DNA of 64,000 bases from an uncultured Gammaproteobacteria bacterium (lineage in GTDB: Bacteria; Patescibacteriota; Microgenomatia; Levybacterales; GWA1-39-11), in assembly GCA_964640435.1 (NCBI GenBank), contig CAZXFJ010000001.1:64542-128541 (forward strand). The letters run 5' to 3'. Position 1 is the first letter of the stretch. Every line of letters begins with the position of its first letter. The notes beneath the pieces are model-generated. The model worked only from the letters and a program-made list of their open reading frames with translations. It was not told the origin of the DNA and ran no database searches. The position numbers and the translations under genes are program-made. Positions 9,601 to 57,860 of the stretch are shown in pieces.

Positions 9601-10041
9601 GACACGAGGAGAAATTACATCATCGGGTAAGTCAGTTATTGAGTCAACCGCAGATTGTACATCAGATTTTGCTTTATCAACATCAACTCCTGATTCAAAT
9701 TCAATTGTTACAGTTGAAGCATTTTCAACAGAATTTGAAGTTACAGTTTTTACTTTATCAAGACTGTTGACAGCATCTTCAATAGGTATAGTTACAAGCG
9801 ACTCAACGTCAGCTGGTCCTGCTCCTGGTAAAACAGTAGAAACCAATACATATGGTAGGTTAACTTGGGGATTTAGATCTCGAGGTAGAGTAAAAAACGC
9901 GTTAAGACCAACACCTATTACTAAAAGGAGTAATAGAACTACTAGTCTTGGATTCTTCAGATAAGAAGCTACTTTTGAATTAGCAAGCTTTTGGTCGAAT
10001 CTGAGGAATTTTAAAAATTCATCTTTTCGTGGTTTTGGCAT
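6685..10041 (-). CDS. RND-family efflux transporter (AcrB/MMPL-like), 1118 aa
   Basis: 12-TM RND topology with two large extracytoplasmic loops and a conserved C-terminal TM bundle. Immediately downstream (minus strand) of an adaptor gene. Confidence 0.8.
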   Translation of the reverse strand: MPKPRKDEFLKFLRFDQKLANSKVASYLKNPRLVVLLLLLVIGVGLNAFFTLPRDLNPQVNLPYVLVSTVLPGAGPADVESLVTIPIEDAVNSLDKVKTVTSNSVENASTVTIEFESGVDVDKAKSDVQSAVDSITDLPDDVISPRVIKLDFENSPVWTFVLTTTADDGSLFKFATHLKQKLEDLPEIDSVGVAGLEETEIKIIVNPEVYSSYGVNPFQLSSAVTSGFKSFPAGSVRTENSNFSLTIDPAISTIDDIRKTRVNLNGQNVSLSEIAQIYESPKPGQNQSFIAYPGRESQRSVTFNVLRVKTFNINRAVSAAHKTVDDEIAARGEGRFEAVNLVNTSEEIDHQFSELTRDFLITVFLVVLVLFIFLGPRQAVVSSLSAPLSFLITFIIMQQTGITLNFLSLFSLILSLGLLVDDTVVVISAMSFYYKTKRFTPIETGLLVWRDFLTPVATTTITTVWAFLPLLLASGIIGEFIKSIPIVVSTALISSFFVAMFITLPLVVILLRPQVPGRVKILFQIIFVLMMAGILFSVIPRGNLFAFEIVALISLLMVVYILREKVIIGVRNMQTKRFSSKTRLGRTLNSLRSRNYEEGVISFDRINHAYKDLIQKVISSRQNRRMVVTMVVIFSIFSFLLLPFGFVKNEFFPKTDSDIVYASIDFASGTNVDVTKKEGLRMLSEISKTPGVNFVSLDLGTSINTESGGTQGDSNSLLYSLNLKKEGQREESFEIAEKLRNKFSNYQAGKFQVIEQSGGPPVGADVQIKLVGDDLSVLNKKADEVVAYLEKNPGIANAEKSIQPGTSKIVFVPNSEIIADNNISVDQLGGLLRLYASGIKFESNKFPGETEEKDITLRLYNETSFVNTLDQINIPTPTGNIPLASLGTLKLENNPTQITREGGKRTISISAAARRGFNSQTINTELIKFADSDLHLPSGYEWKTGGANEENQNSINSILTAMILSFFLIIVTMVIQFSSFRRALIVMLVIPLSISGVFVIFALTGTPLSFPALIGVLALFGIVVKNSILVVDKIVENQKHDMSLIEAISEASASRLEPIALTSLATILGLIPITVTDPLWRGLGGAIIAGLTFSGIIMLFFIPTVYFMWFNTKRETRR

Positions 10042-10042
10042 A

Positions 10043-11677: not shown

Positions 11678-13471
11678 ATGACAGCTTCCCAAATTCTTGA
11701 AAAGTACATTAAGTTTTATGAAGAAAGAGGGCATAAAAGGATACCTAGTTCTTCTCTTGTCCCCCTTAATGACCCATCAACTTTATTTACATCATCCGGA
11801 ATGCAGCCATTAGTGCCATATTTATTAGGAGAAACACATCCTCAAGGTAAAAGACTGGTTAATTCGCAAAATTCATTCAGAGCTCAGGATATTGATGAGA
11901 TAGGGGATAGTCGTCATACAACTTTTTTTAGAATGCTAGGAAACTGGTCACTGGGTGATTACTTCAAAAAAGAACAGATTCCATGGGTTTTTGAACTTTT
12001 AACCAAAGAGTTAAATATTAATCCAGAAAAATTATACGTCACTGTTTTTGAAGGATATGGCGAAATTGAGCGTGATTTTGAAGCAGCAGATATTTGGAAA
12101 GAACTTTTTGCATCAGTTGGTTTAAGCGGAGAAGAGCGAATTTTCTACTATGGAGTTGAAAAAAATTGGTGGTCAAGATCTGGGGTTCCAGACAAAATGC
12201 CAGTTGGTGAACCTGGCGGACCTGATTCAGAAGTTTTTTTTGAGTTTGATGTAGAGCATGACAGACAATTTGGTGACAAGTGTCATGTAAATTGTGACTG
12301 CGGAAAATATGTAGAAATTGGGAATTCTGTTTTTATGCAATACAAAAAAAATACAGATGGTTTTGAAGAATTACCTCAGAAAAATGTTGATTTTGGTGGA
12401 GGGCTTGAGAGATTGGTAATGGCAACTGAAAGTAAGCAAGATATTTTTGAAACATCACTTTTTTTTCCAATTATTGAGACAATCTCAAATACAACTGCAA
12501 AGAAATACGAAGAAAATAAGCGAGAAATGAGAATTGTTGCAGATCATTTAATTTCTAGTGCTTTTATCACTGCAAATGGTGTTCGACCTGCGAATAAAGA
12601 GCAAGGGTATATCCTTAGGCGACTACTTCGTCGTGCTTTTGATAACTTTTATGCGCTTAATGGCGACACAATAGTTCCGATTATTGAAAAAATTGTTGAT
12701 CAATACAAAGAAACTGATGAATATTTATTAGAAAAATATGAAGAAATAAAGAATGTAATTCTCGAAGAAGAACAGAAATATAAGAATACTCTTTCAGAAG
12801 CAAAGAAGTTTATTTCCAAAAGATACAAAAGAACAGGTGATGAATTAATGGGTGTAACTGAAATATCAGCAGATGATGCATTTATTCTTTATACGACTCA
12901 TGGTCTTTCGCCAACTCAAATTAAAAGTCTTGGTTTTCAATTTGATGATCAAAAATTTGCAGAAAAAATGGAAGAGCATCAGAGTTTATCTCGAAAAGGC
13001 GCAGAGCATAAATTTGCTGGTGGACTAGCAGATCATGAGGAACTAACAATTAAAGGGCATACCGCAACTCACCTTTTACAGCAAGCACTACGTGATGTTT
13101 TAGGTGATCAAATTCACCAAACAGGATCAAATATTACAACGGAAAGATTAAGATTTGATTTTAATCTTGATAGAAAATTGACCGAAGAAGAAATTGAAAA
13201 GGTGGAAAAAATAGTTCGGGAAAAGATAGAAGAAAATCTTCCAGTTCGTTTTGAGATTATGCCAATAGAGAAAGCTCGTAAAACTGGTGCGATTGGTCTT
13301 TTTGATGATAAATACAATAAAGACGTAAAAGTATATTTTATAGGTGATTATTCGAAAGAATTGTGCGGAGGTCCTCATGTCGATTTTACAGGAGAGATTA
13401 AAAGTTTTAAAATAATTAAAGAAGAGAGCCTTGGTAAAACCAACAGGCGTATTTATGCTGTTGTAGAGTAG
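11678..13471 (+). CDS. alaS: Alanine--tRNA ligase, short form (catalytic + tRNA-recognition + editing core, no C-Ala domain)
   Basis: N-terminal AlaRS class II motifs (FTSSGMQP, WSLGDY). Editing-domain Zn motifs HTATHLL and CGGPHV. Only 597 aa. Confidence 0.85.
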   Translation: MTASQILEKYIKFYEERGHKRIPSSSLVPLNDPSTLFTSSGMQPLVPYLLGETHPQGKRLVNSQNSFRAQDIDEIGDSRHTTFFRMLGNWSLGDYFKKEQIPWVFELLTKELNINPEKLYVTVFEGYGEIERDFEAADIWKELFASVGLSGEERIFYYGVEKNWWSRSGVPDKMPVGEPGGPDSEVFFEFDVEHDRQFGDKCHVNCDCGKYVEIGNSVFMQYKKNTDGFEELPQKNVDFGGGLERLVMATESKQDIFETSLFFPIIETISNTTAKKYEENKREMRIVADHLISSAFITANGVRPANKEQGYILRRLLRRAFDNFYALNGDTIVPIIEKIVDQYKETDEYLLEKYEEIKNVILEEEQKYKNTLSEAKKFISKRYKRTGDELMGVTEISADDAFILYTTHGLSPTQIKSLGFQFDDQKFAEKMEEHQSLSRKGAEHKFAGGLADHEELTIKGHTATHLLQQALRDVLGDQIHQTGSNITTERLRFDFNLDRKLTEEEIEKVEKIVREKIEENLPVRFEIMPIEKARKTGAIGLFDDKYNKDVKVYFIGDYSKELCGGPHVDFTGEIKSFKIIKEESLGKTNRRIYAVVE

Positions 13472-13482
13472 GGCTAAATTTT

Positions 13483-15819
13483 ATGAATCTGCCTTTTTTA
13501 AAAAGCGAAAAGCCGCAAAAAAATTTCTTTTTATCTCTGTTGTACAAGCCATATAAGGTAAGTGCGATTTTATTTGAAGAGATAAATTCAAAACTTTTTA
13601 TTCTTTCCACTTCTGATCAAGATACTACGAAAAGTGCCGATGAGTTAACAGCTGATGAATTACTAAATATTTCAGATAAAGTTGTTAGTAGTGTTGAGCC
13701 AAGTCTTCCAGAAGGTGCAACAGTTGAAAAAACTATTTTTTCTGTTCCTTACGAGTGGGTTACGGATGGAAAAATTAGCGCTGAGTATCTTGAGAAGTTA
13801 AAAAAAGTTTGTCAGGATTTAGGACTTATTCCTGTGGGGTATTTAATTTCAATTGAAGCAATTATTTCCCATCTTGAGCATAAAGAGGGAGCCCCTGTTT
13901 CGGCTATTTTTGTTGAGGTTGCGGTCAAGAAAATGATTGTATATCTTGTCCGTGCTGGGAAAATCTTAGAGGTACATTCGGCTGACATTGAAAAAGGGGC
14001 ACTTCCCACAGCAGAATCCTTATTAAAACAAATAAATACCGTAGATGTTTTGCCTTCAAGAATTATTTTGCTGGATTATAAAAATGCAGCAGCAATGCAA
14101 CAGGACTTCATATCGCATACCTGGTCCAGTGATATTTCATTTCTTCATTTACCTCAGGTATTAGTTCTTGAAAAAGGTTTTGAGGACGAAGCGGCAGTTA
14201 ATGGGGTAGCTATACAAATGGACCTTGAGGTCTTACATGATACTTCCGCACTTAGGAAAGTAGAGAGCGAAAACATAAGTATCGGGGATAAAAAAGACAT
14301 TGAAGAACCTTTTGAAAAAGAAGAGGTTACTGAGGAAATTGAAGAGGCTTCAGCTGAAGAACTTGGTTTTGTTAAAGAGAGGGATGTCGCTGATGAAGAG
14401 ATAAAGATGGAAGAGGCTGAAGCTACTGGTGATGGGATTTCTGATGATGGCGAGCCTGTAATTCGAGAGGCAGGAAAAATAAACGAAGAGTCGAATATTT
14501 CTATAATTGAACCAAATGATCCCCCTGAATCTCAGGATTTTGATCCAGAAACAAAAAATGTTGCCGCAGGTATACCAATACTTTCATCATTACCCATGTT
14601 GTCAAATTTTTCTTTTCCAAGCACAATAAGAGAGATACAGAGGAAAATTAAAATACCTAATTTAAAATCTTTTTTTGCTGGAGGAAACAATTCGATGAAA
14701 ATAAAAGCTGCGATTGCATTAGGTGTAGTAATAGTTGCAATAGTTATTATCTCCGTTCTTTATTACAACGTAATTCTAAAAGCTGAAGTTTCTGTTTTTT
14801 CTGATAGAAAAACAGTAGATAAAAGTCAGGAAGTAACTTTTTCAGAAAACCCTTCTGACTCAAGCTCAATAAAAATAACTCTGAAAGAGCAAACAGAGAA
14901 AGGTGATGATACGAAGAATGCTAGTGGAACGAAAGATACTGGGGAGACAGCAAAGGGGAGTATTGTGGTTTATAACAAGACAGAAAGTGAGAAATCATTT
15001 CCTAAAGGAACTGTGATAGTTGGCCCAAATAGTCTTGAATTTGAAACTCAAAGTGACATTAAAATTGCCTCAACCAGTGCATTCTCAACAAGTCTTTCAT
15101 CGGCAAGTGTTAAGGTCGAGGCATCAAAGTTCGGTAAAGAATATAATCTTCCTTCAGGATCTAATTTCACAATTAAAGGTTCATCCTCAAGTAACTATAT
15201 TGCTAAAAATTCAGAAGCCTTGACTGGTGGTACTAAGAAAACAACCACTGTTGTTTCGCAAAAAGATTTAGATCAACTACTAACGCAAGTTGAAGAAAAG
15301 CTTGAGAAGAATGCGATTGAGGCAGTTAAACAGCAAATAGGTTCATCGGGGGATGTAATTCCTCAAGCACTTTCTGTTGACGTTGTTGAGAAAAACTACA
15401 CTAAAAAAGTTGGAGCAGAGAGTGGAAGTGTTGGGATTTCTGCCGAGGTTAGATATTCCATAGGAAGTTATAGTCGGGATGATATTCAAAAAGTTGTTGA
15501 TTCATTGTCTTCAGGAGATATACCTGGAACATATAAGATTAATATGGATAATTCAAAAATTGAAGTGGTCGATGTAAAAGTAGATAATGACAATAATGCC
15601 TCAGCAACTCTTAAGGTCAATGCAACTTACGAGCCGGAAATTGATAGTGCAAAATTGGCAACAGAGCTTAAAGGAAACGGTGAATCAAAAGCTATCGAAA
15701 AAATAAAAAGTATAAATGGGGTTACAGATGTTGTCATAAAGTTTTCAAGAAAAATTCCATTCTTCCCTAATATGCTGCCTGCTAATAGTAAAAACATAGA
15801 CGTACAGGTTAAGAAATAA
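13483..15819 (+). CDS. Hypothetical bitopic protein: N-terminal FtsA/PilM-like (actin-fold/SHS2-like) cytoplasmic region, acidic linker, central TM helix, Ser/Thr-rich extracytoplasmic domain
   Basis: N-terminal pattern resembles FtsA/PilM domain 1C/2A, but the glycine-rich ATP loop is degenerate. Single TM (AAIALGVVIVAIVIISVLYY) near residue 410. S/T-rich C-terminal half. Confidence 0.4.
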   Translation: MNLPFLKSEKPQKNFFLSLLYKPYKVSAILFEEINSKLFILSTSDQDTTKSADELTADELLNISDKVVSSVEPSLPEGATVEKTIFSVPYEWVTDGKISAEYLEKLKKVCQDLGLIPVGYLISIEAIISHLEHKEGAPVSAIFVEVAVKKMIVYLVRAGKILEVHSADIEKGALPTAESLLKQINTVDVLPSRIILLDYKNAAAMQQDFISHTWSSDISFLHLPQVLVLEKGFEDEAAVNGVAIQMDLEVLHDTSALRKVESENISIGDKKDIEEPFEKEEVTEEIEEASAEELGFVKERDVADEEIKMEEAEATGDGISDDGEPVIREAGKINEESNISIIEPNDPPESQDFDPETKNVAAGIPILSSLPMLSNFSFPSTIREIQRKIKIPNLKSFFAGGNNSMKIKAAIALGVVIVAIVIISVLYYNVILKAEVSVFSDRKTVDKSQEVTFSENPSDSSSIKITLKEQTEKGDDTKNASGTKDTGETAKGSIVVYNKTESEKSFPKGTVIVGPNSLEFETQSDIKIASTSAFSTSLSSASVKVEASKFGKEYNLPSGSNFTIKGSSSSNYIAKNSEALTGGTKKTTTVVSQKDLDQLLTQVEEKLEKNAIEAVKQQIGSSGDVIPQALSVDVVEKNYTKKVGAESGSVGISAEVRYSIGSYSRDDIQKVVDSLSSGDIPGTYKINMDNSKIEVVDVKVDNDNNASATLKVNATYEPEIDSAKLATELKGNGESKAIEKIKSINGVTDVVIKFSRKIPFFPNMLPANSKNIDVQVKK

Positions 15820-15820
15820 A

Positions 15821-16540
15821 ATGACTTATTATGAAAAAGGCGCAAAAGCGAGCCGAAAAAAATACGTTAAAATCCTTGGTAGTTTTTTTATAATTTTTGG
15901 AATCCTATTTTTTGGGTATTTTTTCTTTCCACTACTTTCCTACCAAGTTTTTTTAGCTAATGCATCAGAAGGGGATATTGAAGTTCCAATTCCTAAATAT
16001 CTAGTTGCAAAGAAAACGGGTAATATTTCAGATCTTATTTCAGAAAGAATTACATCGCTTACGACAAATTTTAATGATGCTCGTAATTGGTATCCAGATG
16101 TTCAAATTGCAAAACAAGAAGAAAGAAAAGTCGATAAGTATTCTCTATCCATACCAAAGTTAAAAATAGAAAATGCAGAAGTATCAACAACTGATTATGA
16201 TTTAGCAAATCATCTAGTTCAATACTTTGGCACAGCGATACCAGGTGAACCAGGTACAGCAATTATTTTTGGTCATTCAACAATTCCTGCCTGGTTTGAT
16301 CCTAAAAATTACAAAACAATTTTTGCAACATTGCACACTCTTAAGGTGGGTGATGAGTTTCAGGCGACAGTTGATGGAAAAACATATAACTATAAAATCT
16401 TCTCCATTGAAATTACAACACCAGAAGATACTAATATGTTTTCTCAGAGCTTTGATCATTCATACATAACAATTGTCACATGTACACCACCTGGAACTAT
16501 CTGGAAAAGACTTGTTGTGAGAGCAGCAATGGAAGAATAA
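15821..16540 (+). CDS. Sortase-family transpeptidase
   Basis: N-terminal TM anchor. Catalytic triad context IFGHS ... TIVTCTP ... KRLVVRA. Start is 2 nt after the upstream stop. Confidence 0.8.
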   Translation: MTYYEKGAKASRKKYVKILGSFFIIFGILFFGYFFFPLLSYQVFLANASEGDIEVPIPKYLVAKKTGNISDLISERITSLTTNFNDARNWYPDVQIAKQEERKVDKYSLSIPKLKIENAEVSTTDYDLANHLVQYFGTAIPGEPGTAIIFGHSTIPAWFDPKNYKTIFATLHTLKVGDEFQATVDGKTYNYKIFSIEITTPEDTNMFSQSFDHSYITIVTCTPPGTIWKRLVVRAAMEE

Positions 16541-16541: not shown

Positions 16542-16757
16542 ATGGAAAACCAAGCACAAAATACTGATTTTGGAATGAATCAAGAGGATATTAAGAACTA
16601 TAAATTAAAAAGCTTTTGGAATACAATTAAATATTACTTGGCAAAAATAGAGCCAGCATTTGTAAAAATATTTCAAACAATATTGTACTGGACTATTAAA
16701 TTCTCGAAAGCATTTTTTAGTGGACTATTTCGTATGATTTTAGGAAAGGAAGTTTAA
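16542..16757 (+). CDS. Small hypothetical protein (71 aa), amphipathic/hydrophobic C-terminus
   Basis: ORF tightly packed between the sortase gene and the phosphorylase gene (TAATG overlap). No recognisable family. Confidence 0.3.
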   Translation: MENQAQNTDFGMNQEDIKNYKLKSFWNTIKYYLAKIEPAFVKIFQTILYWTIKFSKAFFSGLFRMILGKEV

Positions 16758-18028
16758 TGGAAGAACAAAATCTCGCTCTTGAAGCAATAAGAAAAAAGCT
16801 TGTAGGAAAAGAACTCTCATATAGAGAGATATATGCAATCATGGATCAGATTGCTCAGGAAAAACTTGGTGATGTTTTAACGACGTACTTTGTTGCGTCA
16901 GGTTATTCAGAAGGTTTTTCAGATGATGAGCTTTATTACCTAACAAAAGCCATGGTTGAAACAGGCGAGCATTTGGATTTTAGAGGAGTTGTTGCAGATA
17001 AGCATTCTATAGGTGGGGTACCAGGAACACGAGTGACAATGATATTAGTTCCTATAATTGCTGCTGCTGGATTTAAAATTCCAAAAAGCTCATCTCGTGC
17101 AATAACTACTCCGGCAGGAACTGCTGATGCAATGGAGGTTTTAGCTCCTGTAACATTCACTAAGGATCAGATATACAAAATTGTAGAAGAAACTAATGCG
17201 TGTATTGTATGGGGAGGGAGTTTTAAAATTGCTCCAGCGGATGATGAGATTATTAAAATTGAAGAACCGCTTGTTTTCGAGTCTTACGACAAAATTGTTG
17301 TTTCAGTAATGGCCAAAAAGGTTGCTTTTGGAGCAACTCATGTAATTATTGATTTGCCATATGGTAGAACTGCAAAAATCCATCGAACAGAAGAGGCAGA
17401 GGTATTAAAGAAAAAATTTGAATTTCTAGGGAAAAAATTTGGAGTTAAGATCAAGGCATCAATTCATAGAATTGAAGAGCCAGCAGGTGTTGGTATTGGT
17501 CCATTATTTGAGGCACGTGATTCATTGAAAGTTTTAGAACAAGTTGAGGATAGGCCAATAGATCTTGAAAATTTGGCTATTAAAACTGCTGCCGAGCTTT
17601 TAGAGCTGTGTCTTTCGGATGCAAATCAAGAAATAAAAAAAGAGGCAGAAAAATATGAAAATACCTTGGAGTGGGCGAGAGATATTTTGGTTTCGGGTAG
17701 GGCACATAAAAAAATGATGGACATAATAAAAGCACAAGGTGGAAAAAAGATTTCTTCAAAGGATTTAATTGGAGGAAAAAAGAGACTTATTATAAAAGCA
17801 GAAAAGAACGGAACAGTAAAGAAAGTTTCAAGTAAAAATATTACTCTACTTGCAAAACTTCTGGGTGCACCAGAGGATAAGGATGCTGGAATGGTCCTTC
17901 AGAAGAGAATTGGAGATAAGGTAGAGAAGGATGAAGAATTAGTCACTTTTCACACGGATTCAGCATATAGGTTAAAAGAGGCAACAGATTCTTACGATCT
18001 GTTCCCAATCTATGAAATTGAGAAGTAA
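16757..18028 (+). CDS. Nucleoside phosphorylase of the thymidine/AMP phosphorylase family (glycosyltransferase family 3)
   Basis: Signature DKHSIGGVPG. Overall collinearity with DeoA-type pyrimidine-nucleoside phosphorylases (about 420 aa). Confidence 0.75.
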   Translation: MEEQNLALEAIRKKLVGKELSYREIYAIMDQIAQEKLGDVLTTYFVASGYSEGFSDDELYYLTKAMVETGEHLDFRGVVADKHSIGGVPGTRVTMILVPIIAAAGFKIPKSSSRAITTPAGTADAMEVLAPVTFTKDQIYKIVEETNACIVWGGSFKIAPADDEIIKIEEPLVFESYDKIVVSVMAKKVAFGATHVIIDLPYGRTAKIHRTEEAEVLKKKFEFLGKKFGVKIKASIHRIEEPAGVGIGPLFEARDSLKVLEQVEDRPIDLENLAIKTAAELLELCLSDANQEIKKEAEKYENTLEWARDILVSGRAHKKMMDIIKAQGGKKISSKDLIGGKKRLIIKAEKNGTVKKVSSKNITLLAKLLGAPEDKDAGMVLQKRIGDKVEKDEELVTFHTDSAYRLKEATDSYDLFPIYEIEK

Positions 18029-32913: not shown

Positions 32914-35061
32914 ATGGCTGATAATTCAAGACAAGTACCACTCGATAAGATCCGAAATATCGGAATCATTGCCCACATTGACGCAGGAAAAACAACAACT
33001 TCTGAGCGTATCCTTTATTACACTGGAAAATCATACAAAATTGGAGATATTGATGATGGAAACACAGTTATGGACTGGATGGATCAAGAAAGAGAAAGAG
33101 GTATTACTATCGTTTCTGCTGCTACAACAACTTTCTGGACTCACACAGAGTTAGGTCGATCAGAAGGTCAAGATGTTCCATACAGAATCAATCTTATTGA
33201 TACCCCAGGTCACGTTGACTTTACAGCAGAAGTAGAGCGTTCACTTCGTGTTCTTGATGGAGCAGTAACAGTACTTGATGCTGAAGAAGGAGTTCAATCA
33301 CAGTCTGAAACAGTTTGGAGACAAGCTGATAAATATCACGTTCCACGTATCTGTTTTGTTAACAAAATGGATAAGCTTGGAGCAGACTTCTTAAAGACTG
33401 TTAAATCTATTGAAGATAGACTTGGAGCAAACCCATGTATTATGGTTCTTCCAATTGGAGCTGAAAATGACTTCGTTGGAGTTGTTGACCTTCTTAATAT
33501 GAAAGCAATTACTTGGGATGGTGGAGAACTGGGTGCAAAATATGATGTTTCTGATGAAATTCCTGAAAGCATGAAGGCTCAAGTTGAAGAATATCGCCAC
33601 AAGATGATTGAGAAGATTGCTGAAAACAATGATGATCTTTTGGAAAAATACTTAAATAATGAAGAAATCTCAAATGAAGAATTAAAGCAAGGTCTTCGTA
33701 AAGCTGTTGTTGGATATAAATTAGTTCCAATTTATGCTGGAACCTCACTTCGAAACAAAGGAGTGCAGCCACTTCTAGATGCTGTTGTTGATTATCTTCC
33801 ATCACCAGCGGATCTTGGAATAGTTAAGGGAACAAATCCAAAAAATGGAGAAGAAGAGGAAAGAAAACTTGTTCCAGAAGAAGCATTTACAGGATTTGCA
33901 TTCAAAGTTCAAATCGACCCACACGTTGGAAAAATTACATTCGTTCGTATCTACTCAGGAAAACTTGTATCAGGATCATATGCATTTAACTCAACTCGTG
34001 ACGTAAAAGAGCGCGTTGGAAGACTTCTTCTTATGCATTCAAACCAAAGAGAAGAAATTGCAGAAGCATATGCCGGAGAAATCGTTGCTGTTGTTGGACT
34101 TAAGGATACAATCACCGGAGACACGATTTGTGATGAAACAAAACCAATTGTCCTTGAGAAGATTACTTTCCCAGAGCCTGTTATCTCTCTTGCTATTGAA
34201 CCAAAAACAAAATCAGATCAAGAAAAGATGGGTCTTGCTTTGAAGCGACTCATGGAAGAGGATCCAACCTTTACAGTTAAAACAAACCACGAAACAAACC
34301 AAACCATTATTTCCGGAGTTGGAGAACTTCAACTTGAAATTATGGTTGATCGTATGAAGCGTGAATTTAACGTTGAAGCAAACGTTGGTGCACCTCAGGT
34401 TGCATACAAAGAAACATTCGGTCAAGAGGCAACTGGAGAGGGAAAATACATCAAGCAAACTGGAGGACGTGGTCAATACGGTCACTGCTGGCTTCGTGTT
34501 GAGCCAATGCCAAGGGGTGAGGGAAGTGTATTCGTTAATGCAATTAAGGGAGGAGCAATTCCTGCAGAATTCGTTACTTCAGTTGAAAAAGGAGTCAAGG
34601 AAACAGAAGAAAAAGGAATGTTACTTGGTTACCCAATGGTAGACATGAAAGTTACAGTTTATGATGGTTCTTACCACGATGTTGATTCATCAGATATCGC
34701 ATTTAAGATTGCAGCATCTATGGCGCTTCAAGCAGCTTCTAAAAAAGGTGACATGAAACTTCTGGAGCCTATTATGAAGATTGAGGTTACAACTCCAGAA
34801 GAATTTATGGGAGATGTTATTGGAGATTTGTCATCAAAGAGAGCGCAAATTTCAGGATCAGAAGAGCGCGGAAATGCACGTATAATTTTGGCTATGGTTC
34901 CATTGTCGGAACTTTCAGGATATGCAACAACTTTAAGATCAATGTCTCAAGGACGTGCAACTTACTACATGGAGCCTTCACACTATGAAGAAGTTCCAAC
35001 TAACATTGTTCAAGCAATGCTTGCAAAGTCCACCTTCACCGGACGCATGAACGCTCAATAA
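32914..35061 (+). CDS. fusA: Elongation factor G
   Basis: GTPase G1-G4 motifs ([18 protein letters not shown]) and EF-G domains II-V. 715 aa. Confidence 0.95.
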
Positions 35062-35086: not shown

Positions 35087-35851
35087 TTAAATTTCAAATT
35101 CCATACCGTCGTATGCTGCTGTAGTATTGGAGAAAATTTTCTTTGCTTCATCTTCTGCCCATTTTCTATCAGATGTTTCAGGAAAAAGATTTGCTCCAAA
35201 GTGGGTAAGAATTAATTTCTTTACATTCCCATCTTTTGCAAGAGTTGCTGCTTGAATAGGATCTAAATGTCCCCAGATGTCAGGATCTTCAGTTTTTTTA
35301 TTTGCACATTCTGAAATTAGTAAATCAGCATCTTGAGCAAGTTTTTTTGCTTCGTCTGTAAATCCACAATCGCCAGTGTATGCAATCATTTTTCCTTCTA
35401 TTTCAAATTTAAATCCATGATCAATATATGCATGTTTTTGTTTAATGGCAGCAGCTTTAAAAGGAATATTTTCAAATTCTTCAGATAGTTCATGAAGTCT
35501 TATTTCGGTTTTTAATTCCCCGATAACACCTTCAATTGGTTCATAGCCAATCGTGAATGGAGGATCGACTATGGTTTTAAAATCTTTTGCTCTGTCTGTT
35601 CCAACATAGACGTCAATTCCTTGCTTAAAGTTGAATTTTGCTAGTGTATGAAGACCGGAGGTATGATCTATATGGAAATGGGAGATAAATAGAGTAATGG
35701 GTTTATATTCATTAATGTATTGGTCAAGCTTGTAGAATCCATTTCCTGCATCAAGAATAATATATTGGTCTTTTGTGTCTATTAAGATACATGGTGTATC
35801 TCCAGTGGGGCTTGAATACCATCCGTTTGTGCCAAGAAATGTTATTTTCAT
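35087..35851 (-). CDS. MBL-fold metallo-hydrolase (RNase Z/PhnP-like short form)
   Basis: HFHIDHTSGL (HxHxDH) plus downstream His/Asp ligands. About 254 aa. Confidence 0.6.
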   Translation of the reverse strand: MKITFLGTNGWYSSPTGDTPCILIDTKDQYIILDAGNGFYKLDQYINEYKPITLFISHFHIDHTSGLHTLAKFNFKQGIDVYVGTDRAKDFKTIVDPPFTIGYEPIEGVIGELKTEIRLHELSEEFENIPFKAAAIKQKHAYIDHGFKFEIEGKMIAYTGDCGFTDEAKKLAQDADLLISECANKKTEDPDIWGHLDPIQAATLAKDGNVKKLILTHFGANLFPETSDRKWAEDEAKKIFSNTTAAYDGMEFEI

Positions 35852-35961
35852 TTTTTTATTATAGCAAACCTAAACATTGTTATATTTTTAACAATTAGTA
35901 TAAATTTATTAATAATTTCAAAAAACTACAATGTTACAGATAAGTTCTGTATAATATTTTT

Positions 35962-37146
35962 ATGCCAAGAATCAAACTGTCCGAATTTCGGGCAAAAACT
36001 ATTGTTGCAGACTATTTAGGCACCGATTATACCGGAATTTCTTTTGATGCAGATTCTGACGGCGTATCAAAGCTTGATGAAACAGTGAAGCCAGATGCTC
36101 GATACGTTGTAAAAGTTGATCAAGGGATAAAAAAGCGTTTTAAACAAGGTTTAATTAAACTTGATGTAACTGGAGTTGATCAGATAATGGATGCATTATC
36201 AGATCTTCGTAAAAAAGGATTTAACCATTTTTTAATTGAAGAGCTTGTCCCACATGAGGACCATGAGGAGCGATATCTAGCACTCGAGCGCACAGATAAG
36301 GGAATTGTTATTCATTATTCACTTCATGGAGGAGTTGAGATTGAGTCTCATCAGTCAGATGTTAAAACAGCAATTTTAAAAGATTCAGAAGAGGTAAGAA
36401 GAATTGCTGAGGAGATTGATCTAAATCCAGATACTCTCGAAAAAATAGTTGAGCTTTTTGATATTAATTATTTTTCATTCTTAGAGATAAACCCACTCGT
36501 TATTTCTTTTAAGAATCCATACTTTTTAGATATTGCTTCAGAAGTAGATTCTGCAGCAGAATTCTTTGTTGATACGTGGTCGCTTGATGACATCCGTAAT
36601 GCAAAACGTAACTTAACAGAAGAAGAAATAAATGTTAGAAAGTTATCAGAAAAAAGTTCTTCATCTCTTTCTTTAACTGTTCTAAATCCAAATGGTTCTA
36701 TTTTCATGTTACTATCTGGTGGAGGAATAAGCGTGGCACTTGCAGATGAAGTAAAGAACTTGGGTCTTGGTCATGAGCTAGCAAATTATGGAGAATATTC
36801 TGGAAACCCAACTGAAGAAGAAACATACATATATACTCAAAATATCTTATCTCTTCTTCTAAAAAGTACAGCAACAAAAAAAGTTCTTGTTATAGGTGGA
36901 GGAGTTGCAAACTTTACAGATGTTCGCAAAACATTTAAGGGAGTAATTCGAGCGTTATCTGAAGTTGCTGATAAGTTGCAAGAGCAAAATGTTAAAGTCT
37001 TTGTTCGTCGTGGAGGTCCAAATCAGGAAGAGGGTCTTGCTCAGATGAAAAAGTTTTTAGAGAACAATAATATTTTAGGATCTGTGGATGGACCAAGTAT
37101 GGTTGTTTCAGAAGTAGTTGATCAGGCTATAAAAACAATAAATTAA
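35962..37146 (+). CDS. aclB: ATP-citrate lyase beta subunit (ATP-grasp, SucC-like; AclB)
   Basis: Near-collinear with the N-terminal part of eukaryotic ACLY and bacterial AclB. Matching blocks: VVKVDQGIKKRFKQGLIKLDV, FLEINPLVI, LTVLNPNGSIFMLLSGGGISV, ELANYGEYSGNPTEEETY, VLVIGGGVANFTDVRKTFKGVIRAL, VFVRRGGPNQEEGL. Confidence 0.85.
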   Translation: MPRIKLSEFRAKTIVADYLGTDYTGISFDADSDGVSKLDETVKPDARYVVKVDQGIKKRFKQGLIKLDVTGVDQIMDALSDLRKKGFNHFLIEELVPHEDHEERYLALERTDKGIVIHYSLHGGVEIESHQSDVKTAILKDSEEVRRIAEEIDLNPDTLEKIVELFDINYFSFLEINPLVISFKNPYFLDIASEVDSAAEFFVDTWSLDDIRNAKRNLTEEEINVRKLSEKSSSSLSLTVLNPNGSIFMLLSGGGISVALADEVKNLGLGHELANYGEYSGNPTEEETYIYTQNILSLLLKSTATKKVLVIGGGVANFTDVRKTFKGVIRALSEVADKLQEQNVKVFVRRGGPNQEEGLAQMKKFLENNNILGSVDGPSMVVSEVVDQAIKTIN

Positions 37147-37147
37147 T

Positions 37148-38944
37148 ATGTTTGACGTTGAAAAAATAATAAATTCAGATCAGAAGGTTTTGGCCATTGG
37201 GTCATACCCTTCAATAATTCAAGCTATGCTTGATTTTGATTTCCTCGCAGGAAAGAAAAATCCAAGTGTTGTGGGAATTGTTGCCTCGGGCCGCCGTGGT
37301 GAGCGATATTTCTTTGGTAAAAAAGAAATAAGAATTCCTGTATATTCTTCTGCAAAAAAATTACCTGAAAAACTAAAAGAAGAAATAACATACATCATTA
37401 ATCTTGGATCAGGCCGCCGTGTCTTAACTTCAACAACAGAGGCTTTAGAAAATCTACCAAATGTAGTTGGTGGATCAGTATTTGCAGAAGATACTCCAGA
37501 AAAACATGCAATTGATTTAAAAGCATATATTGAAGCAAGGAAAATCTTTTTAACAGGACCTGCGTCTGTTGGGTTTTTAATTCCAGGAATATTTAAGCTT
37601 GGCGCTATTGGTGGAGTAACACACAAGCAGTTAATTGACGCAAAATTATTTGAACGAGGAAATGTTGCAGTTTTCTCTGCTTCGGGTGGAACTACAAATG
37701 AGTTAATTAATATTCTCGCACAGCACAATAAAAAGATTTCTTTTGCCCTTCATTTTGGAGGAGATAGGTTCCCTATGGTTCCACCAAAAGAGGCATTTTT
37801 AGCAGCACAAGCAGATCCTGCAACAACTCACATTGTATATTTTGGTGAACTTGGTGGAATCGATGAATATGCAGTCTGTCAACTAATTCAGGAAGGAAAA
37901 TTGACAAAACCAATTATAGTTTATATTGCTGGAGTAGTTGCTGAGGTTTTCCCAGAATCTCCTCAATTTGGTCACGCAAAAGCTATGGCATCAACCGCAC
38001 GTGAAACAGCTCGTGCAAAGCGCGATGCATTAAAAGCCGCTAGTGCTCAGGTTGCAGAAAGTTTTGCAGAATTTGTTGCTCTTATGAGCAATATTCCATC
38101 GCACTCAACCACTGAAGAGAAAAAGCACAATGATATAATTACGCAACATATGGAAAACAGAAAGCATGCTATTATTGCTACCAGTATTTCAAAAGATGAA
38201 GACGGACAGGTAAAAGTTTTGGGACAAGATTTACTAAAGTTTGCAGAAGATCACTCTTTTGGTTATATAGTTGTCTCAATGTTTTTGGGTAAACAGATAA
38301 AAAGCCGCGAGCTCGAAGACTATATTAATTTTATCTTGAAGCTTCTTGTTGATCATGGACCTTATGTTTCAGGAGCAGTAAACACTATTGTTACCTCTCG
38401 CGCTGGTCGTGATTTAGTTTCGTCTCTTTCCGCAGGACTTCTAACAGTTGGACCAAGATTTGGAGGAGCAATTAATGAAGCAGCTGCTAATTGGATTGAG
38501 GGAGTTGAGAGTGGAGAATCTGCAGAAAAATTTGTTGAAAGCTTTGCTGCTAAGAAAAAATATGTTTTAGGAATTGGACATAAAAAATACAGAGTAGATA
38601 TGCCTGATCCAAGAGTTACTGCAATTAAAAAATATACTGAAGGACTTGATGCAAAGTACACAAAGTTTGCGTTAAGTGTAGAAAAAGTTACAGTTGCTAA
38701 AAAAGGCAATCTAATTCTAAATGTTGATGGTGCAATAGCCGCAGTTTTGCTTGATATTTTAAGTGAAAAAGAAGGATATACAGTAGACGAACTTAAAGAG
38801 CTTGTTGAAACAGAATTCTTTAATGGATTATTCGTCTTATCTCGCTCTGTTGGATTTATTTCACATTTCTTAGATCAAAAAAGAATGGATGAGGGACTGT
38901 TTAGACTAGAAGAAGAGCATGTAGCCGATGCCTCTGGTGAATAG
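37148..38944 (+). CDS. aclA: ATP-citrate lyase alpha subunit (CoA-binding/SucD-like domain + citryl-CoA lyase, citrate-synthase-like domain; AclA)
   Basis: Matching blocks: MLDFDF, TGPASVG, GIFKLGAIGG, GKLTKPIIVY, catalytic His context QFGHAKAMAS, LVDHGPYVSGAVNTIVTSRAGRDLVSSLSAGLLTVGPRFGGA, GIGHKKYRVDMPDPRV, KGNLILNVDG, NGLFVLSRSVGFISHFLDQKRM. Confidence 0.85.
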   Translation: MFDVEKIINSDQKVLAIGSYPSIIQAMLDFDFLAGKKNPSVVGIVASGRRGERYFFGKKEIRIPVYSSAKKLPEKLKEEITYIINLGSGRRVLTSTTEALENLPNVVGGSVFAEDTPEKHAIDLKAYIEARKIFLTGPASVGFLIPGIFKLGAIGGVTHKQLIDAKLFERGNVAVFSASGGTTNELINILAQHNKKISFALHFGGDRFPMVPPKEAFLAAQADPATTHIVYFGELGGIDEYAVCQLIQEGKLTKPIIVYIAGVVAEVFPESPQFGHAKAMASTARETARAKRDALKAASAQVAESFAEFVALMSNIPSHSTTEEKKHNDIITQHMENRKHAIIATSISKDEDGQVKVLGQDLLKFAEDHSFGYIVVSMFLGKQIKSRELEDYINFILKLLVDHGPYVSGAVNTIVTSRAGRDLVSSLSAGLLTVGPRFGGAINEAAANWIEGVESGESAEKFVESFAAKKKYVLGIGHKKYRVDMPDPRVTAIKKYTEGLDAKYTKFALSVEKVTVAKKGNLILNVDGAIAAVLLDILSEKEGYTVDELKELVETEFFNGLFVLSRSVGFISHFLDQKRMDEGLFRLEEEHVADASGE

Positions 38945-38965: not shown

Positions 38966-39925
38966 ATGAAAGTTTTTCCCGATTTTGAGATTCGTGATTT
39001 GCTTTGGTATAAAATCGGAGGCAAAGTTAGGTTATTTATTGAAGTTTCTACAAAGCAGGATATAAAAGATGCTTTTACCCTTATTAAGCGAGAAAAAATA
39101 CAGAAAATTCTCTTTATTGGAACGGGTTCAAATCTTATTTTTCCAGACGACTACTTTGACGGAGCAGTTATAAAATTTGTGCCAAGTAACGATCCAATCA
39201 GGCTTGTTAAACCACATGTAATCGAAGCAGATGCTGGAGTAATTCTAGATGATGTTCTTCAGTTTGCATTTAATAATAATCTTGCAGGTCTTGAATGGGC
39301 TGGGGGATTGCCGGGAGATGTTGGGGCAGCCATTCGAGGAAACGTTGGTGCATTTGGCGGAGAGATAAAGGATAGTGTTGCAGAAGTGGAAACGTTTGAA
39401 ATCACAAATGGTAAGCCAAAGTTTAGAACCTTAAAGCGTCATCAATTGAAATTCTCATACAGAAATTCTTTAGTGAAGAAGAAAAAGCTTGGGGTACTCA
39501 CTGCTACATTTAGGCTTAAGAAGGTAACAGATTCGGAAATGCTGAAAGTTAGATCAACTTACTTACATAATATTGAATACAGAAAGATAAGGCATCCACT
39601 CGAGTATCCAAATTGTGGATCAGTATTTAAGAATGTTGCTGATCCGATTCATGTAGGAAAAGTTATAGAAGTTTTCCCAGACCTTGAAGAGAAAATAAAA
39701 AGAGATTGGCATGGTAAGGTTGCCATGGGGTATTTGATAAAGAGACTAGATTTGGGAGAGTTTCGCGTTGGAAATGCTATGGTATCAGCAAAGCATAGTA
39801 ATTTTGTTGTTAACCTTGGCGGAGCACGATCAACAGATGTCTTGGCAATAATTAAAACTATTCAAGATAAATTTGTAGAAACTTTTGATTTTCTGCCTGA
39901 AGTGGAGGTGGAAATAGTAAATTAA
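38966..39925 (+). CDS. murB: UDP-N-acetylenolpyruvoylglucosamine reductase
   Basis: FAD-binding N-domain and MurB C-domain motifs (GGLPGDVGAAIRGNVGAFGG, SAKHSNFVVNLGGA). Confidence 0.85.
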   Translation: MKVFPDFEIRDLLWYKIGGKVRLFIEVSTKQDIKDAFTLIKREKIQKILFIGTGSNLIFPDDYFDGAVIKFVPSNDPIRLVKPHVIEADAGVILDDVLQFAFNNNLAGLEWAGGLPGDVGAAIRGNVGAFGGEIKDSVAEVETFEITNGKPKFRTLKRHQLKFSYRNSLVKKKKLGVLTATFRLKKVTDSEMLKVRSTYLHNIEYRKIRHPLEYPNCGSVFKNVADPIHVGKVIEVFPDLEEKIKRDWHGKVAMGYLIKRLDLGEFRVGNAMVSAKHSNFVVNLGGARSTDVLAIIKTIQDKFVETFDFLPEVEVEIVN

Positions 39926-40197
39926 TGGACGAGAACAACGAACAACAACAGTTAAATTTAAACATTAATTTTGATTCAACTCCAGTTTTATATACAGATA
40001 ACATTGTTATGACAACAAATGAGAATGGATTTGTACTCAATGTCATGCAGCAACTCATGACAACAAACCAGGTAAGAGTTGTTTCAAGAATTGGAATGAG
40101 TCGAGATCACGCTAAAAAGCTCGTAAAAGAAATGGGAAGACTCCTTGCCATGACTGAGGGAGAGGGACAGACTCAAGAAACTAAAAAGAAGAACTAG
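39925..40197 (+). CDS. Small hypothetical protein (90 aa), DUF3467-like
   Basis: Gln/Asn-rich N-terminus, then a conserved-looking core (YTDNIVMTTNENGFVLNVMQ). Start overlaps the murB stop (TAATG). Confidence 0.35.
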   Translation: MDENNEQQQLNLNINFDSTPVLYTDNIVMTTNENGFVLNVMQQLMTTNQVRVVSRIGMSRDHAKKLVKEMGRLLAMTEGEGQTQETKKKN

Positions 40198-46564: not shown

Positions 46565-47239
46565 GTGAAATATCCAAAGAAAAAAGTAGCAGTAGCGATC
46601 TTTGCACACCCAGATGACGAAGCATTTGGTCCAGCTGGAACAATTCATAAATTAACTCGTGATTATGACGTTTATCTTCTCTGCGCAACAAAAGGTGAGA
46701 TAGGTGAAACAAGTATTGAAAACAAAAAGCCTCTTCACGAGATTCGTGCTGATGAGCTTCGAAAATCTGCAAAGATATTAGGAGTAAAAAAAGTATATTT
46801 TTTAGGTTTTATAGATGGGACACTTTCAAATAGTCTTTATCATAAATTAGCAGCAGAAATTGAAAAGCATTTGAAAAAATTAATGCCTGAACTTATTTTA
46901 ACTATGAATCCAAATGGAGGTTCAGGGCATATTGATCATATTGTTGTTTCCATGGTTTCGTCATTTGTTTTTGAACGATTATCATTTATTAAAAAGATTA
47001 TGTATACCGCTCAAACAAAAGAGGTAACAGATAAATCTGCAAAATATCCCTACTTTATATATAGACCCCAAGGTTTACCTCGAGAACAAATTGATGAAAT
47101 TGTCGATGTTTCAGATGTTTGGGAGGTAAAGCAGGCTGCTATGAAAACTCACGAGTCACAAAAACATGATTATGATAGAATAAATAAAATGCGGGAGGGC
47201 TTACCTCAAGAAGAGCACTTTTTAGTTAAAAATAGGTAG
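46565..47239 (+). CDS. PIG-L/LmbE-family N-acetylglucosaminyl deacetylase
   Basis: AHPDDE motif near the N-terminus and a HIDH metal-ligand motif (GGSGHIDH). Confidence 0.7.
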   Translation: MKYPKKKVAVAIFAHPDDEAFGPAGTIHKLTRDYDVYLLCATKGEIGETSIENKKPLHEIRADELRKSAKILGVKKVYFLGFIDGTLSNSLYHKLAAEIEKHLKKLMPELILTMNPNGGSGHIDHIVVSMVSSFVFERLSFIKKIMYTAQTKEVTDKSAKYPYFIYRPQGLPREQIDEIVDVSDVWEVKQAAMKTHESQKHDYDRINKMREGLPQEEHFLVKNR

Positions 47240-47324: not shown

Positions 47325-48506
47325 ATGGCTGGAAAATTTGACAGAACAAAACCACACGTTAATATAGGAACCATCGGTCACGTCGACCATGGTAAAACTA
47401 CGTTAACAGCTGCTATCACAACAGTTCTTGCTAAAAAAGGACTTGCTGAAGCAAAGAAATACGAAGATATTGATAATGCTCCTGAGGAAAAAGCTCGTGG
47501 AGTCACCATTAACATCTCCCACCAAGAGTACGAAACAGAAAACAGACACTATGCTCACATTGATGCTCCAGGACACGCTGATTATGTTAAAAACATGATC
47601 ACAGGAGCAGCTCAGATGGATGGAGCAATCCTTGTTGTATCTGCTGCAGACGGTCCAATGCCTCAAACACGTGAACACATTCTTCTTGCTCACCAAGTTG
47701 GTGTACCTAAGATCGTTGTCTTCCTTAATAAAGTAGACATGGTTTCAGACCCAGAGCTTATTGACCTTGTTGAAATGGAAGTACGTGAACTTCTTTCAAA
47801 ATACCAATATCCAGGAGATGAGACACCTATCGTTAAGGGTTCAGCTCTTAAAGCAACACAAGGTGATGCAGCAGCGGAAGAACAAATTCTTGAACTTATG
47901 AAGACTGTTGATGAATACGTTCCAACACCAGAACGTGACACAGATAAACCATTCCTTATGCCTGTTGAAGACGTTTTCTCAATTAAAGGTCGTGGAACAG
48001 TTGTAACCGGACGTGTAGAGCGTGGAATGATCAAAGTTAACGACACAGTTGAAATCGTTGGAATTAAACCAACAGTATCAACAGTTATTACAGGAATTGA
48101 AATGTTTAGAAAACAACTTGATGACGCACAAGCTGGAGATAACGCAGGACTATTACTTCGTGGAATTGAAAAAGAGAACGTAGAGCGTGGTCAAGTTATC
48201 GCAAAACCAGGTTCTATTACTCCTCACACAGAATTTGAAGCTGAAATTTACGTTCTTACCAAAGAAGAAGGTGGACGTCACACTCCATTCTTCAAAGGAT
48301 ACCGCCCACAGTTTTACATCAGAACAACTGACGTTACAGGTGAAGTTATCTTGCCAGATGGTGTAGAAATGGTTATGCCAGGAGACAATGCTAAAATGAC
48401 AGCAAAATTAATTGTACCTATTGCTCTTGAAGAAGGAATGAGATTTGCTATTCGTGAAGGTGGAAAGACAGTTGGAGCTGGAGTTATTACTAAGGTTCTT
48501 AAATAG
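47325..48506 (+). CDS. tuf: Elongation factor Tu
   Basis: [18 protein letters not shown] motifs. 393 aa. Confidence 0.97.
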
Positions 48507-57401: not shown

Positions 57402-57860
57402 ATGGATAATAGAAATTATAATCAACAAGCACAGGATCGATCTGAAGAAAAGGTTGTACAGTTAAATCGTGTTTCTAAAAAAACTAAAGGTGGAAACAAA
57501 ATGAGATTTGCAGCGCTTGTTGTTGTGGGAAACAGACAAGGTCGTGTTGGAGTTGGACTTGGTAAATCATCAGACGTTTCAAGTGCAATTATTAAAGGTG
57601 CACAACAAGCAAGAAAACGAATGATTGATGTAAATATTGTTAAAGATACAATTTCACACCCAGTTTTTGTGAAAGTTGGAGCAGCACAAGTTATGCTTAA
57701 GCCAGCTCCTGCAGGAACAGGTATTATTGCAGGTGGAGCAGTACGTGCAGTTGTTGAGGCAGCAGGAATTAAAAATATCTCATCAAAAATTTTGGGAACA
57801 AACAATAAAGCAAGCAATGTTCATGCAACATTTGAAGCATTAACAAGACTTGGTAAATAA
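57402..57860 (+). CDS. rpsE: 30S ribosomal protein S5 (followed directly by rplO; no rpmD/L30)
   Basis: S5 dsRBD and C-domain (VVVGNRQGRVGVGLGKS...). Confidence 0.95.
   Translation: MDNRNYNQQAQDRSEEKVVQLNRVSKKTKGGNKMRFAALVVVGNRQGRVGVGLGKSSDVSSAIIKGAQQARKRMIDVNIVKDTISHPVFVKVGAAQVMLKPAPAGTGIIAGGAVRAVVEAAGIKNISSKILGTNNKASNVHATFEALTRLGK

Follow-up and report, generated by a model that had tools for sequence, protein, structure and literature searches.

A predicted two-subunit ATP-citrate lyase of archaeal/eukaryote-like type in a Levybacteria-like genome of the candidate phyla radiation

ATP-citrate lyase (ACL) has been described in several settings, with which an aclB-aclA gene pair on a 64-kb stretch of DNA (contig CAZXFJ010000001.1, positions 64,542 to 128,541; hereafter the window, meaning the whole stretch that was analysed) is compared here. 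In bacteria of the candidate phyla radiation (CPR), the two-subunit enzyme was reported in 2019 by Sieber et al. in mBio from a closed Gracilibacteria genome without a tricarboxylic acid (TCA) cycle; its archaeal affinity was noted, citrate transporters were reported, and the enzyme was proposed to cleave imported citrate into acetyl-CoA and oxaloacetate (PMC6851277). A groundwater study of 2025 found Saccharimonadia to be enriched in aclAB, its table giving aclA in 27% of the metagenome-assembled genomes (MAGs) of one class and in 0–3.5% of those of others, and aclB in up to 5% (PMC12577380). A 2022 preprint pointed out that CPR and DPANN homologues of citrate-cleaving enzymes are mis-annotated as succinyl-CoA synthetase (SCS) or citrate synthase, while a paper of 2025 placed ACLA/B and ACLY of eukaryotes beside DPANN and Thermoplasmatota sequences (PMC11976288). 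Both the TCA cycle and its reductive counterpart (rTCA) are described as 'largely absent' in the phylum (reviews PMC13293708, PMC12592800); its members supposedly subsist on metabolites of their hosts and have hardly any central metabolism, and the sources of their acetyl-CoA and C4 precursors are poorly defined.

The window almost certainly encodes a complete heteromeric ACL (EC 2.3.3.8), as predicted from its aclB and aclA genes, in a Levybacteria-like member of the Microgenomates within the CPR that has a tiny genome. The reading that we favour, with a probability of roughly 0.6, is that AclBA is a competent ACL of a CPR-specific clade that cleaves scavenged citrate into acetyl-CoA and oxaloacetate for biosynthesis. 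That CPR have ACL, and what the enzyme probably does there, has been published before, and this pair is a well-supported further example; a literature search on citrate lyase together with Levybacteria found no paper. An earlier note on this DNA had called the enzyme unexpected in such a genome, which was overstated given the CPR enzyme published in 2019 (PMC6851277), the Saccharimonadia enrichment of 2025 (PMC12577380) and the at least 117 relatives counted here. Like the Gracilibacteria enzyme, the present one has two subunits and a phospho-His motif of the GHAGA type and belongs to a reduced CPR genome, in whose available sequence no other TCA-cycle gene was seen; it differs in coming from another CPR class, in having at least 117 relatives where that paper speaks of an enzyme 'rarely detected in CPR', and in lacking from its window the citrate transporters reported there. 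Current views are not overturned by the CPR ACL, and the main value of the analysis is to document how broad and how conserved the CPR clade is, together with a testable hypothesis on cell-wall precursors.

The beta subunit, comprising an ATP-grasp and a citrate-binding domain, is encoded by aclB (35962–37146, + strand, 394 aa), and the alpha subunit, in which a CoA-binding/CoA-ligase part with the phospho-His loop is fused to a citrate-synthase-homology (CSH) module, by aclA (37148–38944, + strand, 598 aa); together they span exactly the 35962–38944 that the earlier note had given. The junction at 37144–37150 (+ strand) reads TAA-t-ATG, with the stop codon at 37144–37146 and the start codon at 37148, which bears out the claimed gap of 1 nt; the murB that was also said to adjoin the pair starts 21 nt past aclA. 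In Pfam, AclB matches PF24948 (ATP-citrate-synthase ATP-grasp; 93.0 bits, 2e-26, cut-off 83) and PF16114 (Citrate_bind; 202.8 bits, 4e-60, cut-off 26.8), and the single 598-aa open reading frame (ORF) of AclA carries PF00549 (Ligase_CoA) at residues 177–300 and PF00285 (Citrate_synt) at residues 270–586. Among PDB sequences searched with phmmer, AclA residues 12–587 align to human ACLY with 355 bits (5e-105), running unbroken along human residues 497–1086; Chlorobium AclA scores 234 bits, SCS alpha subunits at most 69, citryl-CoA lyase (CCL) 61, the small subunit of citryl-CoA synthetase (CCS) 57 and citrate synthases at most 47. For AclB, the corresponding PDB scores are 203 bits for human ACLY, 140 for Chlorobium, 46 for the CCS large subunit and 23 for SCS beta. 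The ACL structures are at least five-fold ahead in bits of SCS, CCS, CCL and citrate synthase, and it is because of these Pfam and PDB scores, together with the NCBIfam scores considered below, that AclBA is predicted to be an archaeal/eukaryote-like ACLY and not SCS, a split CCS/CCL system or an ACL of the Chlorobi reverse-TCA type. These full-length matches, which go well past anything expected by chance, and the margin behind them, along with the conserved active-site residues, uphold the earlier assignment to a two-subunit ACL and not to SCS.

The structurally characterized enzymes differ in how closely they resemble this pair. ACLY-A/B of Methanosaeta (Methanothrix) concilii (6HXI/6ZNW) is likewise encoded by split genes and aligns over its full length, ACLY-A giving the best AclB match (205 bits) and ACLY-B matching AclA with 354 bits, level with human ACLY. 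However, it is archaeal, and the similarly scoring non-CPR representatives are 36–41% identical; moreover, CPR AclB is about 25 residues shorter in its ATP-grasp part (394 versus 421 aa), with positions 6–229 of the Pfam ATP-grasp profile covered by residues 7–204, and its K-x-R-x-K loop differs from that of M. concilii. Human ACLY (6HXH, 6POE, 6UUW and others) has the same domain order and shares G281–283, S308, E599, S663–G665, H760, H900, H975, D1026 and R1065, but it consists of one fused chain that carries a regulatory linker, has R976 where the window AclA has Lys, and provides acetyl-CoA in the cytosol for acetylation and for making lipids. The AclBA of Chlorobium limicola (6HXJ) is also a heteromeric aclB-aclA product catalyzing the same reaction; in contrast, it is more distant (234 and 140 bits) and acts in the complete rTCA cycle of an autotroph.

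Active-site residues listed for ACLY (PMC11365397 for G281–283, S308, E599 and S663–G665 of the catalytic centre, PMC10115795 for H900, R976, D1026 and R1065 of the CSH module) were mapped to human numbering by alignment, and their conservation was counted over aligned orthologues from CPR loci (75 AclB and 79 AclA sequences). Nothing is missing from the catalytic centre, with G281–283 (LSGGGISV), S308/G309 (EYSGNP), E599 (FAEDTPE), S663–G665 (SASGGTT) and H760 (QFGHAKA) all in place; N346-F347-T348 (VANFTDV) and R379 (FVRRGGPN) are present in AclB, and H900, H975, R986, D1026 and R1065 of the CSH module are conserved in AclA. The phospho-His loop QFGHAKA aligns to the human QFGHAGA (H760, GHAGA type), and its His is found in 79/79 CPR AclA sequences. 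Most of the motifs quoted in the earlier note, namely LNPNGSIFMLLSGGG, ELANYGEYSG, FVRRGGPN, QFGHAKAMAS, GIGHKKYRVDMPDPRV, KGNLILNVDG and FISHFLDQKR, occur as given; the exception is ADHGP, which is the human sequence, the window having VDHGP. G309, N346, T348 and R379 form what we take to be the citrate site as set out with the 3MWD structure. Since the mapped residues are invariant or nearly so across the CPR orthologues (those of the catalytic centre and the citrate site in 73–75/75 AclB and 79/79 AclA sequences), purifying selection on function is indicated, and AclBA is apparently catalytically competent.

A search of a protein database returned 1727 AclA relatives at E <= 1e-20. The best 120 of these are all about 595 aa long and 56–100% identical, the named ones belonging to Patescibacteria, Levybacteria or Saccharimonadales and mostly bearing the wrong label, 'citrate/2-methylcitrate synthase' or 'succinyl-CoA synthetase alpha'. 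When each GTDB species was represented by one genome, a scan gave at least 117 relatives, of which the best 80 loci, together with the window (81 in all), were used for the locus analyses; these 80 come from MAGs of Levybacteria, Saccharibacteria/Saccharimonadia, Woesebacteria, Roizmanbacteria and Patescibacteria without further classification and include a closed 938-kb chromosome. The many 'uncultured Gammaproteobacteria' titles are apparent placeholders. aclB lies directly 5' of aclA in 75/81 loci. In a neighbour-joining tree of 102 full-length sequences (581 columns, 100 bootstraps), one clade of 51 tips with a bootstrap of 80 holds all labelled CPR sequences (Levybacteria, Saccharimonadia, Woesebacteria and Roizmanbacteria) and a Dojkabacteria representative, with Saccharimonadia and Microgenomates forming separate sub-groups inside it. 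The window AclA falls within this clade, apart from a Chlorobiaceae representative (P0195; 224 bits, 33% identity) and a fungal one (P0138), which are placed elsewhere in the tree. Near the clade, on unsupported branches, stand another type from Saccharibacteria and a DPANN archaeon; the deep nodes have bootstraps below 60, leaving the sister group of the clade and a link to eukaryotic ACLY without support. With the clade, a bacterial branch that is well sampled is added in the vicinity of the DPANN/archaeal ACLs, lineages that have been discussed as relatives of eukaryotic ACLY (PMC11976288). Additionally, the representatives at 50% identity include many proteins of about 1000 aa in which AclB and AclA are fused into one chain (P0154, P0155, P0156, P0160, P0165, P0170, P0172, P0173 and others), on contigs of up to 36 kb, whose sole label is 'ATP citrate (pro-S)-lyase'; their N-termini resemble CPR AclB (MPxxILSEY...VVKVDQxIKGR), unlike those of animal or fungal ACLY, and they fall into separate, poorly supported groups of the tree.

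Within the Levybacteria-like lineage, the divergence of aclBA tracks that of housekeeping genes, as expected under vertical descent. The elongation factor EF-G of the window is 93–94% identical to that of four Patescibacteria MAG loci (L001–L004) and 86% to that of a Levybacteria MAG, and EF-Tu is 88% identical to that of Levybacteria loci (the Levybacteria MAG loci in these EF-G and EF-Tu comparisons being L007 and L006); the relatives that rank highest for these two proteins also do so for AclA (64–71%), AclB and MurB. Taken over all loci that carry the two genes compared, the identity of AclA is correlated with that of EF-G (Pearson 0.80, 300 pairs) and with that of MurB (Pearson 0.88, 374 pairs). 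An ACL that is conserved and passed on by vertical descent in several large classes of CPR points towards citrate as an input and towards a simple supply node with two products.

What the sequences show is how the genes are built, their family and clade, the conserved residues, the synteny and the distribution; the activity, its direction, where the citrate comes from and where the products go are inferred from them. By homology to the solved ACLY structures, the mechanism would take the following form. Citrate would be taken up from the host or the environment, and ATP would phosphorylate the His of the QFGHA loop, from which the phosphate would move to citrate held in the AclB citrate site to give citryl-phosphate; attack by CoA at the AclB/AclA interface would then yield citryl-CoA, and retro-Claisen cleavage of the latter would release acetyl-CoA and oxaloacetate, so that one ATP would be spent on two biosynthetic precursors. 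The C-terminal CSH module of AclA would serve as the oligomer core and in CoA handling. Citrate cleavage is taken to be the likeliest direction because there is no other TCA-cycle gene in the available sequence of the organism, which comprises the window and about 10 kb upstream of it, and because the phylum is generally without the cycle. It is further favoured since the enzyme, run in reverse, would bring no gain in ATP over existing acetate-forming routes, yet would consume oxaloacetate. Neither citrate synthase, aconitase nor isocitrate dehydrogenase (IDH) was found among the window ORFs annotated by Pfam or by eye or in the annotated flanks, which agrees with the earlier statement that the window holds no other TCA-cycle gene.

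A different enzyme, be it SCS, a system of citryl-CoA synthetase and lyase, or a protein that resembles ACL but acts on another acid, is very improbable as an explanation of the pair. It could draw on GenBank, where the orthologues go by the names 'citrate/2-methylcitrate synthase' or 'succinyl-CoA synthetase alpha subunit', and on weak NCBIfam matches to SCS and CCL models; however, the preprint of 2022 had flagged such CPR/DPANN entries as mis-annotated, and the matches reach 57–107 bits against cut-offs of 193–375, the SCS, citryl-CoA-lyase and citrate-synthase models all remaining far under their curated thresholds. SucCD has the same ligase core, with its ATP-grasp, CoA-binding and phospho-His parts, but it has neither the citrate-binding specialisation nor the citrate-synthase-like module; it was rejected on the Citrate_synt domain present here and on the scores against the SucC/SucD models (52–107 bits for cut-offs of 336–375; TIGR01016, 56.8 versus 375.6; NF004230, 107 versus 336). 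CcsAB plus Ccl was rejected as well: the CCS (6HXQ) and CCL (6HXP) of Hydrogenobacter thermophilus have homologous domains and perform the same overall chemistry in two steps, but the lyase there is a protein apart from the small subunit of the synthetase, one ORF encoding the two here, and the scores are 46–61 bits. CoA-ligase and citrate-synthase-like domains in one chain are found in AclA, unlike in CCS and CCL; the ACL-specific PF16114 and PF24948 exceed their thresholds; and at the citrate site G309, N346, F347 and R379 are invariant, with T348 being Thr in 73/75 and Ser in 2/75. The sequence thus effectively argues this alternative away, and the comparison of AclA/AclB with the SucCD and CcsAB/Ccl families comes out in favour of ACL, with the phospho-His and lyase residues retained. 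The further possibility that aclBA sits on a contaminant or chimeric contig and is foreign to a CPR genome is vanishingly small, and nothing was found that speaks for it. The window reads rpoB-rpoC-rpsL-rpsG ... fusA-[MBL]-aclB-aclA-murB ... tuf-rpsJ-rplC ... rpsE-rplO-secY-adk-map-infA-rpsM-rpsK-rpsD-rpoA-rplQ, MBL being a metallo-beta-lactamase-fold gene; with this rpoBC-str-S10-spc gene order around them, aclBA therefore belong to the gene cluster that is best conserved in the chromosome, with fusA and tuf of one ribosomal supercluster on either side. The GC content is uniform (0.30–0.39 over the window, 0.36 in aclBA). Identical AclA is encoded on contigs from four separate sequencing runs, always followed by murB and preceded by aclB where the contig reaches; the order fusA...aclB-aclA-murB is repeated in Levybacteria and Patescibacteria MAGs, the same neighbourhood is present in more than 25 other CPR MAGs, and EF-G is encoded upstream of aclBA in 25 loci. 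As AclA, EF-G, EF-Tu and MurB also rank the relatives alike, contamination and chimerism can in practice be excluded.

Several observations nevertheless weigh against citrate cleavage by a competent AclBA. The position of human R976, a residue whose change to Glu inactivates human ACLY (PMC10115795), is Lys in the window AclA, as it is in 44 sequences of the clade, with Arg in 33 and Leu in 2 (K or R in 77/79); this R-to-K change would be a conservative one. In the ATP-grasp loop, AclB residues 57–61 read K-K-R-F-K where human ACLY has K-R-R-G-K (64–68), the 75 CPR AclB sequences follow K-[G/K/Q]-R-[F/M/K]-K, and Gly67 is replaced in all 75 by residues that include F, M, K, L and N. Neither change looks disabling. 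A citrate transporter is absent from the window, and just 1/81 loci has one nearby: a MatC_N/CitMHS di- or tricarboxylate carrier three genes 5' of aclB (L048, 9206–10456, – strand) is the sole candidate near aclBA, the other genes within four positions that encode at least seven transmembrane segments being Acyl_transf_3, MFS_3, EamA, AI-2E and polysaccharide-synthesis proteins. Furthermore, the ACL reaction is near equilibrium, so that sequence cannot give its direction, and the recurrent neighbours tdh-kbl, 2-oxoacid:ferredoxin oxidoreductase (OFOR) and archaeal-type phosphoenolpyruvate (PEP) carboxylase make acetyl-CoA or oxaloacetate, which fits the reverse direction equally well. The main rival of citrate cleavage is accordingly an ATP-conserving citrate synthase, in which acetyl-CoA, oxaloacetate, ADP and Pi would give citrate, CoA and ATP, the citrate being excreted or passed on; we regard this as unlikely. 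Desulfobacter postgatei reportedly runs the ACL reaction in reverse with substrate-level phosphorylation. The reaction is reversible, human ACLY making citryl-CoA from its products (PMC10115795), and, besides the missing transporter, the rival can point to tdh and kbl (threonine to glycine and acetyl-CoA) by aclBA in L019, L025, L052, L071 and L042, to OFOR in L041, L046 and L070, and to the archaeal-type PEP carboxylase (PF14010, 1e-133) in L050, L054, L060, L061 and L076. However, fermentative CPR already gain the same ATP via acetate kinase, which has been reported in Saccharimonadia (PMC12592800), or related routes with oxaloacetate spared; aconitase and IDH were seen in no annotated flank; and tdh/kbl, OFOR and PEP carboxylase can equally be read as parallel suppliers at one metabolic node. 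Cleavage is supported by the carrier in L048, by the like reading of the Gracilibacteria enzyme with its citrate transporters (PMC6851277) and by the recurrence beside aclBA of acetyl-CoA-consuming GNAT and Acyl_transf_3 genes and of genes leading from aspartate to diaminopimelate, such consumers being at least as frequent there as the suppliers. As for a remnant or fragment of an rTCA cycle for CO2 fixation, which the earlier note had also entertained, ACL is the hallmark enzyme of the Arnon-Buchanan cycle, to which annotation pipelines assign it (supplement of PMC12577380), and OFOR is adjacent in three loci; this origin is nonetheless highly improbable. AclA reaches 224 bits (33%) with the Chlorobiaceae representative versus 355 with human and 354 with Methanosaeta ACLY and branches in the CPR clade near DPANN-type sequences, the gene set of the window is that of a host-dependent fermenter, and the phylum is largely without TCA and rTCA cycles (PMC13293708). 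No further cycle enzyme, whether 2-oxoglutarate:ferredoxin oxidoreductase, fumarate reductase, aconitase or IDH, was found in the window, the 10 kb upstream or the annotated recurrent flank families of the 80 loci.

The citrate-cleavage reading can be carried further with the genes that surround aclBA in other genomes. The proteins of the 80 related loci and the window were clustered, the recurrent flank families were annotated by Pfam, and lineage clusters were formed at 65% AclA identity (n=28). murB occurs within a few genes of aclBA in 28/81 loci and at +1 or +2 from aclA in 24 of them. Other genes of the same surroundings are ddl (3 loci, at -1), glmM (8 loci, in most of them with a GNAT acetyltransferase alongside), glmS (8 loci), a dapL that resembles LL-diaminopimelate aminotransferase (8 loci), lysC-dapB-dapA (3 loci), a second GNAT family (5 loci) and Acyl_transf_3 membrane acetyltransferases (at least 6 loci), next to the tdh-kbl pair (4–5 loci), the archaeal-type PEP carboxylase (5 loci) and OFOR (3 loci) already mentioned. 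The carboxylase gene stands three to four genes 5' of aclA in loci like those of Woesebacteria or Roizmanbacteria, where it adjoins dcd and dapL. After reassignment based on hidden Markov models (HMMs), the listed families account for 21% of the genes one or two positions away from aclBA, for 12% at position 3, for about 5% at positions 4–6 and for 1–2% at positions 7–10; before that reassignment, at least one of them lay within three genes in 58/81 loci and 22/28 lineage clusters. These figures are to be read with the caveats that the families were picked after inspection, that distant genes are annotated less thoroughly and that shared ancestry inflates the counts. In the Levybacteria-type loci L008, L011, L012 and L021, aclBA, sometimes with ddl before it, is flanked immediately by fusA and tuf, which places the genes of a pair of metabolic enzymes within the str operon.

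On an exploratory basis, these neighbourhoods suggest that AclBA feeds an acetyl-CoA/oxaloacetate node tied to the supply of cell-envelope precursors. A stronger version, in which the CPR ACL would be a dedicated hub for such precursors fed by host-derived citrate, is a tentative idea that we consider rather unlikely. Acetyl-CoA would be used there for the N- and O-acetylation of amino sugars (the acetyl groups of GlcNAc and MurNAc) via a GlmS/GlmM/GNAT/MurB route and Acyl_transf_3 enzymes, and oxaloacetate would be converted to aspartate and on to diaminopimelate via LysC, DapA, DapB and DapL. Such a hub would explain the probable co-transcription of murB, the embedding in the str operon in some Levybacteria and the repeated landing of genes of the same route beside aclBA after rearrangement; if it exists, citrate would be a key cross-fed metabolite of the episymbiosis.

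The murB gene of the window (UDP-N-acetylenolpyruvoylglucosamine reductase; 38966–39925, + strand; Pfam FAD_binding_4, PF01565, and MurB_C, PF02873) starts 21 nt past the end of aclA on the same strand, and no terminator-like site was found in the gap by a promoter/terminator scan whose yield did not exceed that of shuffled sequence; murB is probably co-transcribed with aclBA. A small ORF of 90 aa (39925–40197, + strand), which has a weak DUF3467 match, overlaps the murB stop with its start and is kept in independent assemblies of the same organism; it is possibly the last gene of an aclB-aclA-murB transcription unit. Upstream, the divergent intergenic region 5' of aclB (35852–35961, + strand) contains putative promoter-like elements found by motif match, among them TTAACA-17-AATAAT at 35888–35916 with a promoter score of 10/12. 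This region is AT-rich and the scan found sites to be no more numerous than in shuffled sequence, and that the elements act as a promoter is inference only. A perfect TATAAT at 35950–35955, 6 nt before the aclB ATG, hints at a leaderless or very short-leader aclB transcript, although a chance match may occur in so AT-rich a region. Divergent from aclB, an MBL-fold protein is encoded at 35087–35851 (– strand); the precomputed Pfam matches of an identical product include PF23023 (Anti-Pycsar Apyc1-like cyclic-nucleotide phosphodiesterase) and Lactamase_B_2, and a member of the same family lies just 5' of aclB in the closest relatives (L001–L005) as well.

The upstream anchor of aclBA in the str/S10/spc ribosomal supercluster is fusA, which encodes EF-G (32914–35061, + strand), and downstream lie tuf at 47325–48506 and rpsJ from 48593. 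The traits by which the earlier note had recognised a CPR-like context were all located: a sortase is encoded at 15821–16540 and a nucleoside phosphorylase at 16757–18028, and L30 is missing, since the genes for S5 (57402–57860) and L15 (57850–58299) overlap and leave no room between them. Loss of L30 between S5 and L15 is a general CPR trait. Rfam and tRNA scans of the 64-kb window gave no matches, and the approximately 10 kb upstream of it contain housekeeping genes only. The alanyl-tRNA synthetase encoded at 11678–13471 (+ strand) has only 597 aa (tRNA-synt_2c and tRNA_SAD), a typical bacterial one having about 870 aa. Between alaS and the sortase gene, a 778-aa protein (13483–15819, + strand) shows weak matches to Baseplate_J and to a GlxA beta-barrel (E about 1e-4). 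A PIG-L/LmbE-type GlcNAc de-N-acetylase is encoded just 5' of tuf (46565–47239, + strand), and a PIG-L domain protein adjoins aclA in locus L047. Finally, the region 6685–11551 (– strand) of this small genome encodes an AcrB-type RND transporter (1118 aa, PF00873, 2.5e-153) and an HlyD-like adaptor.

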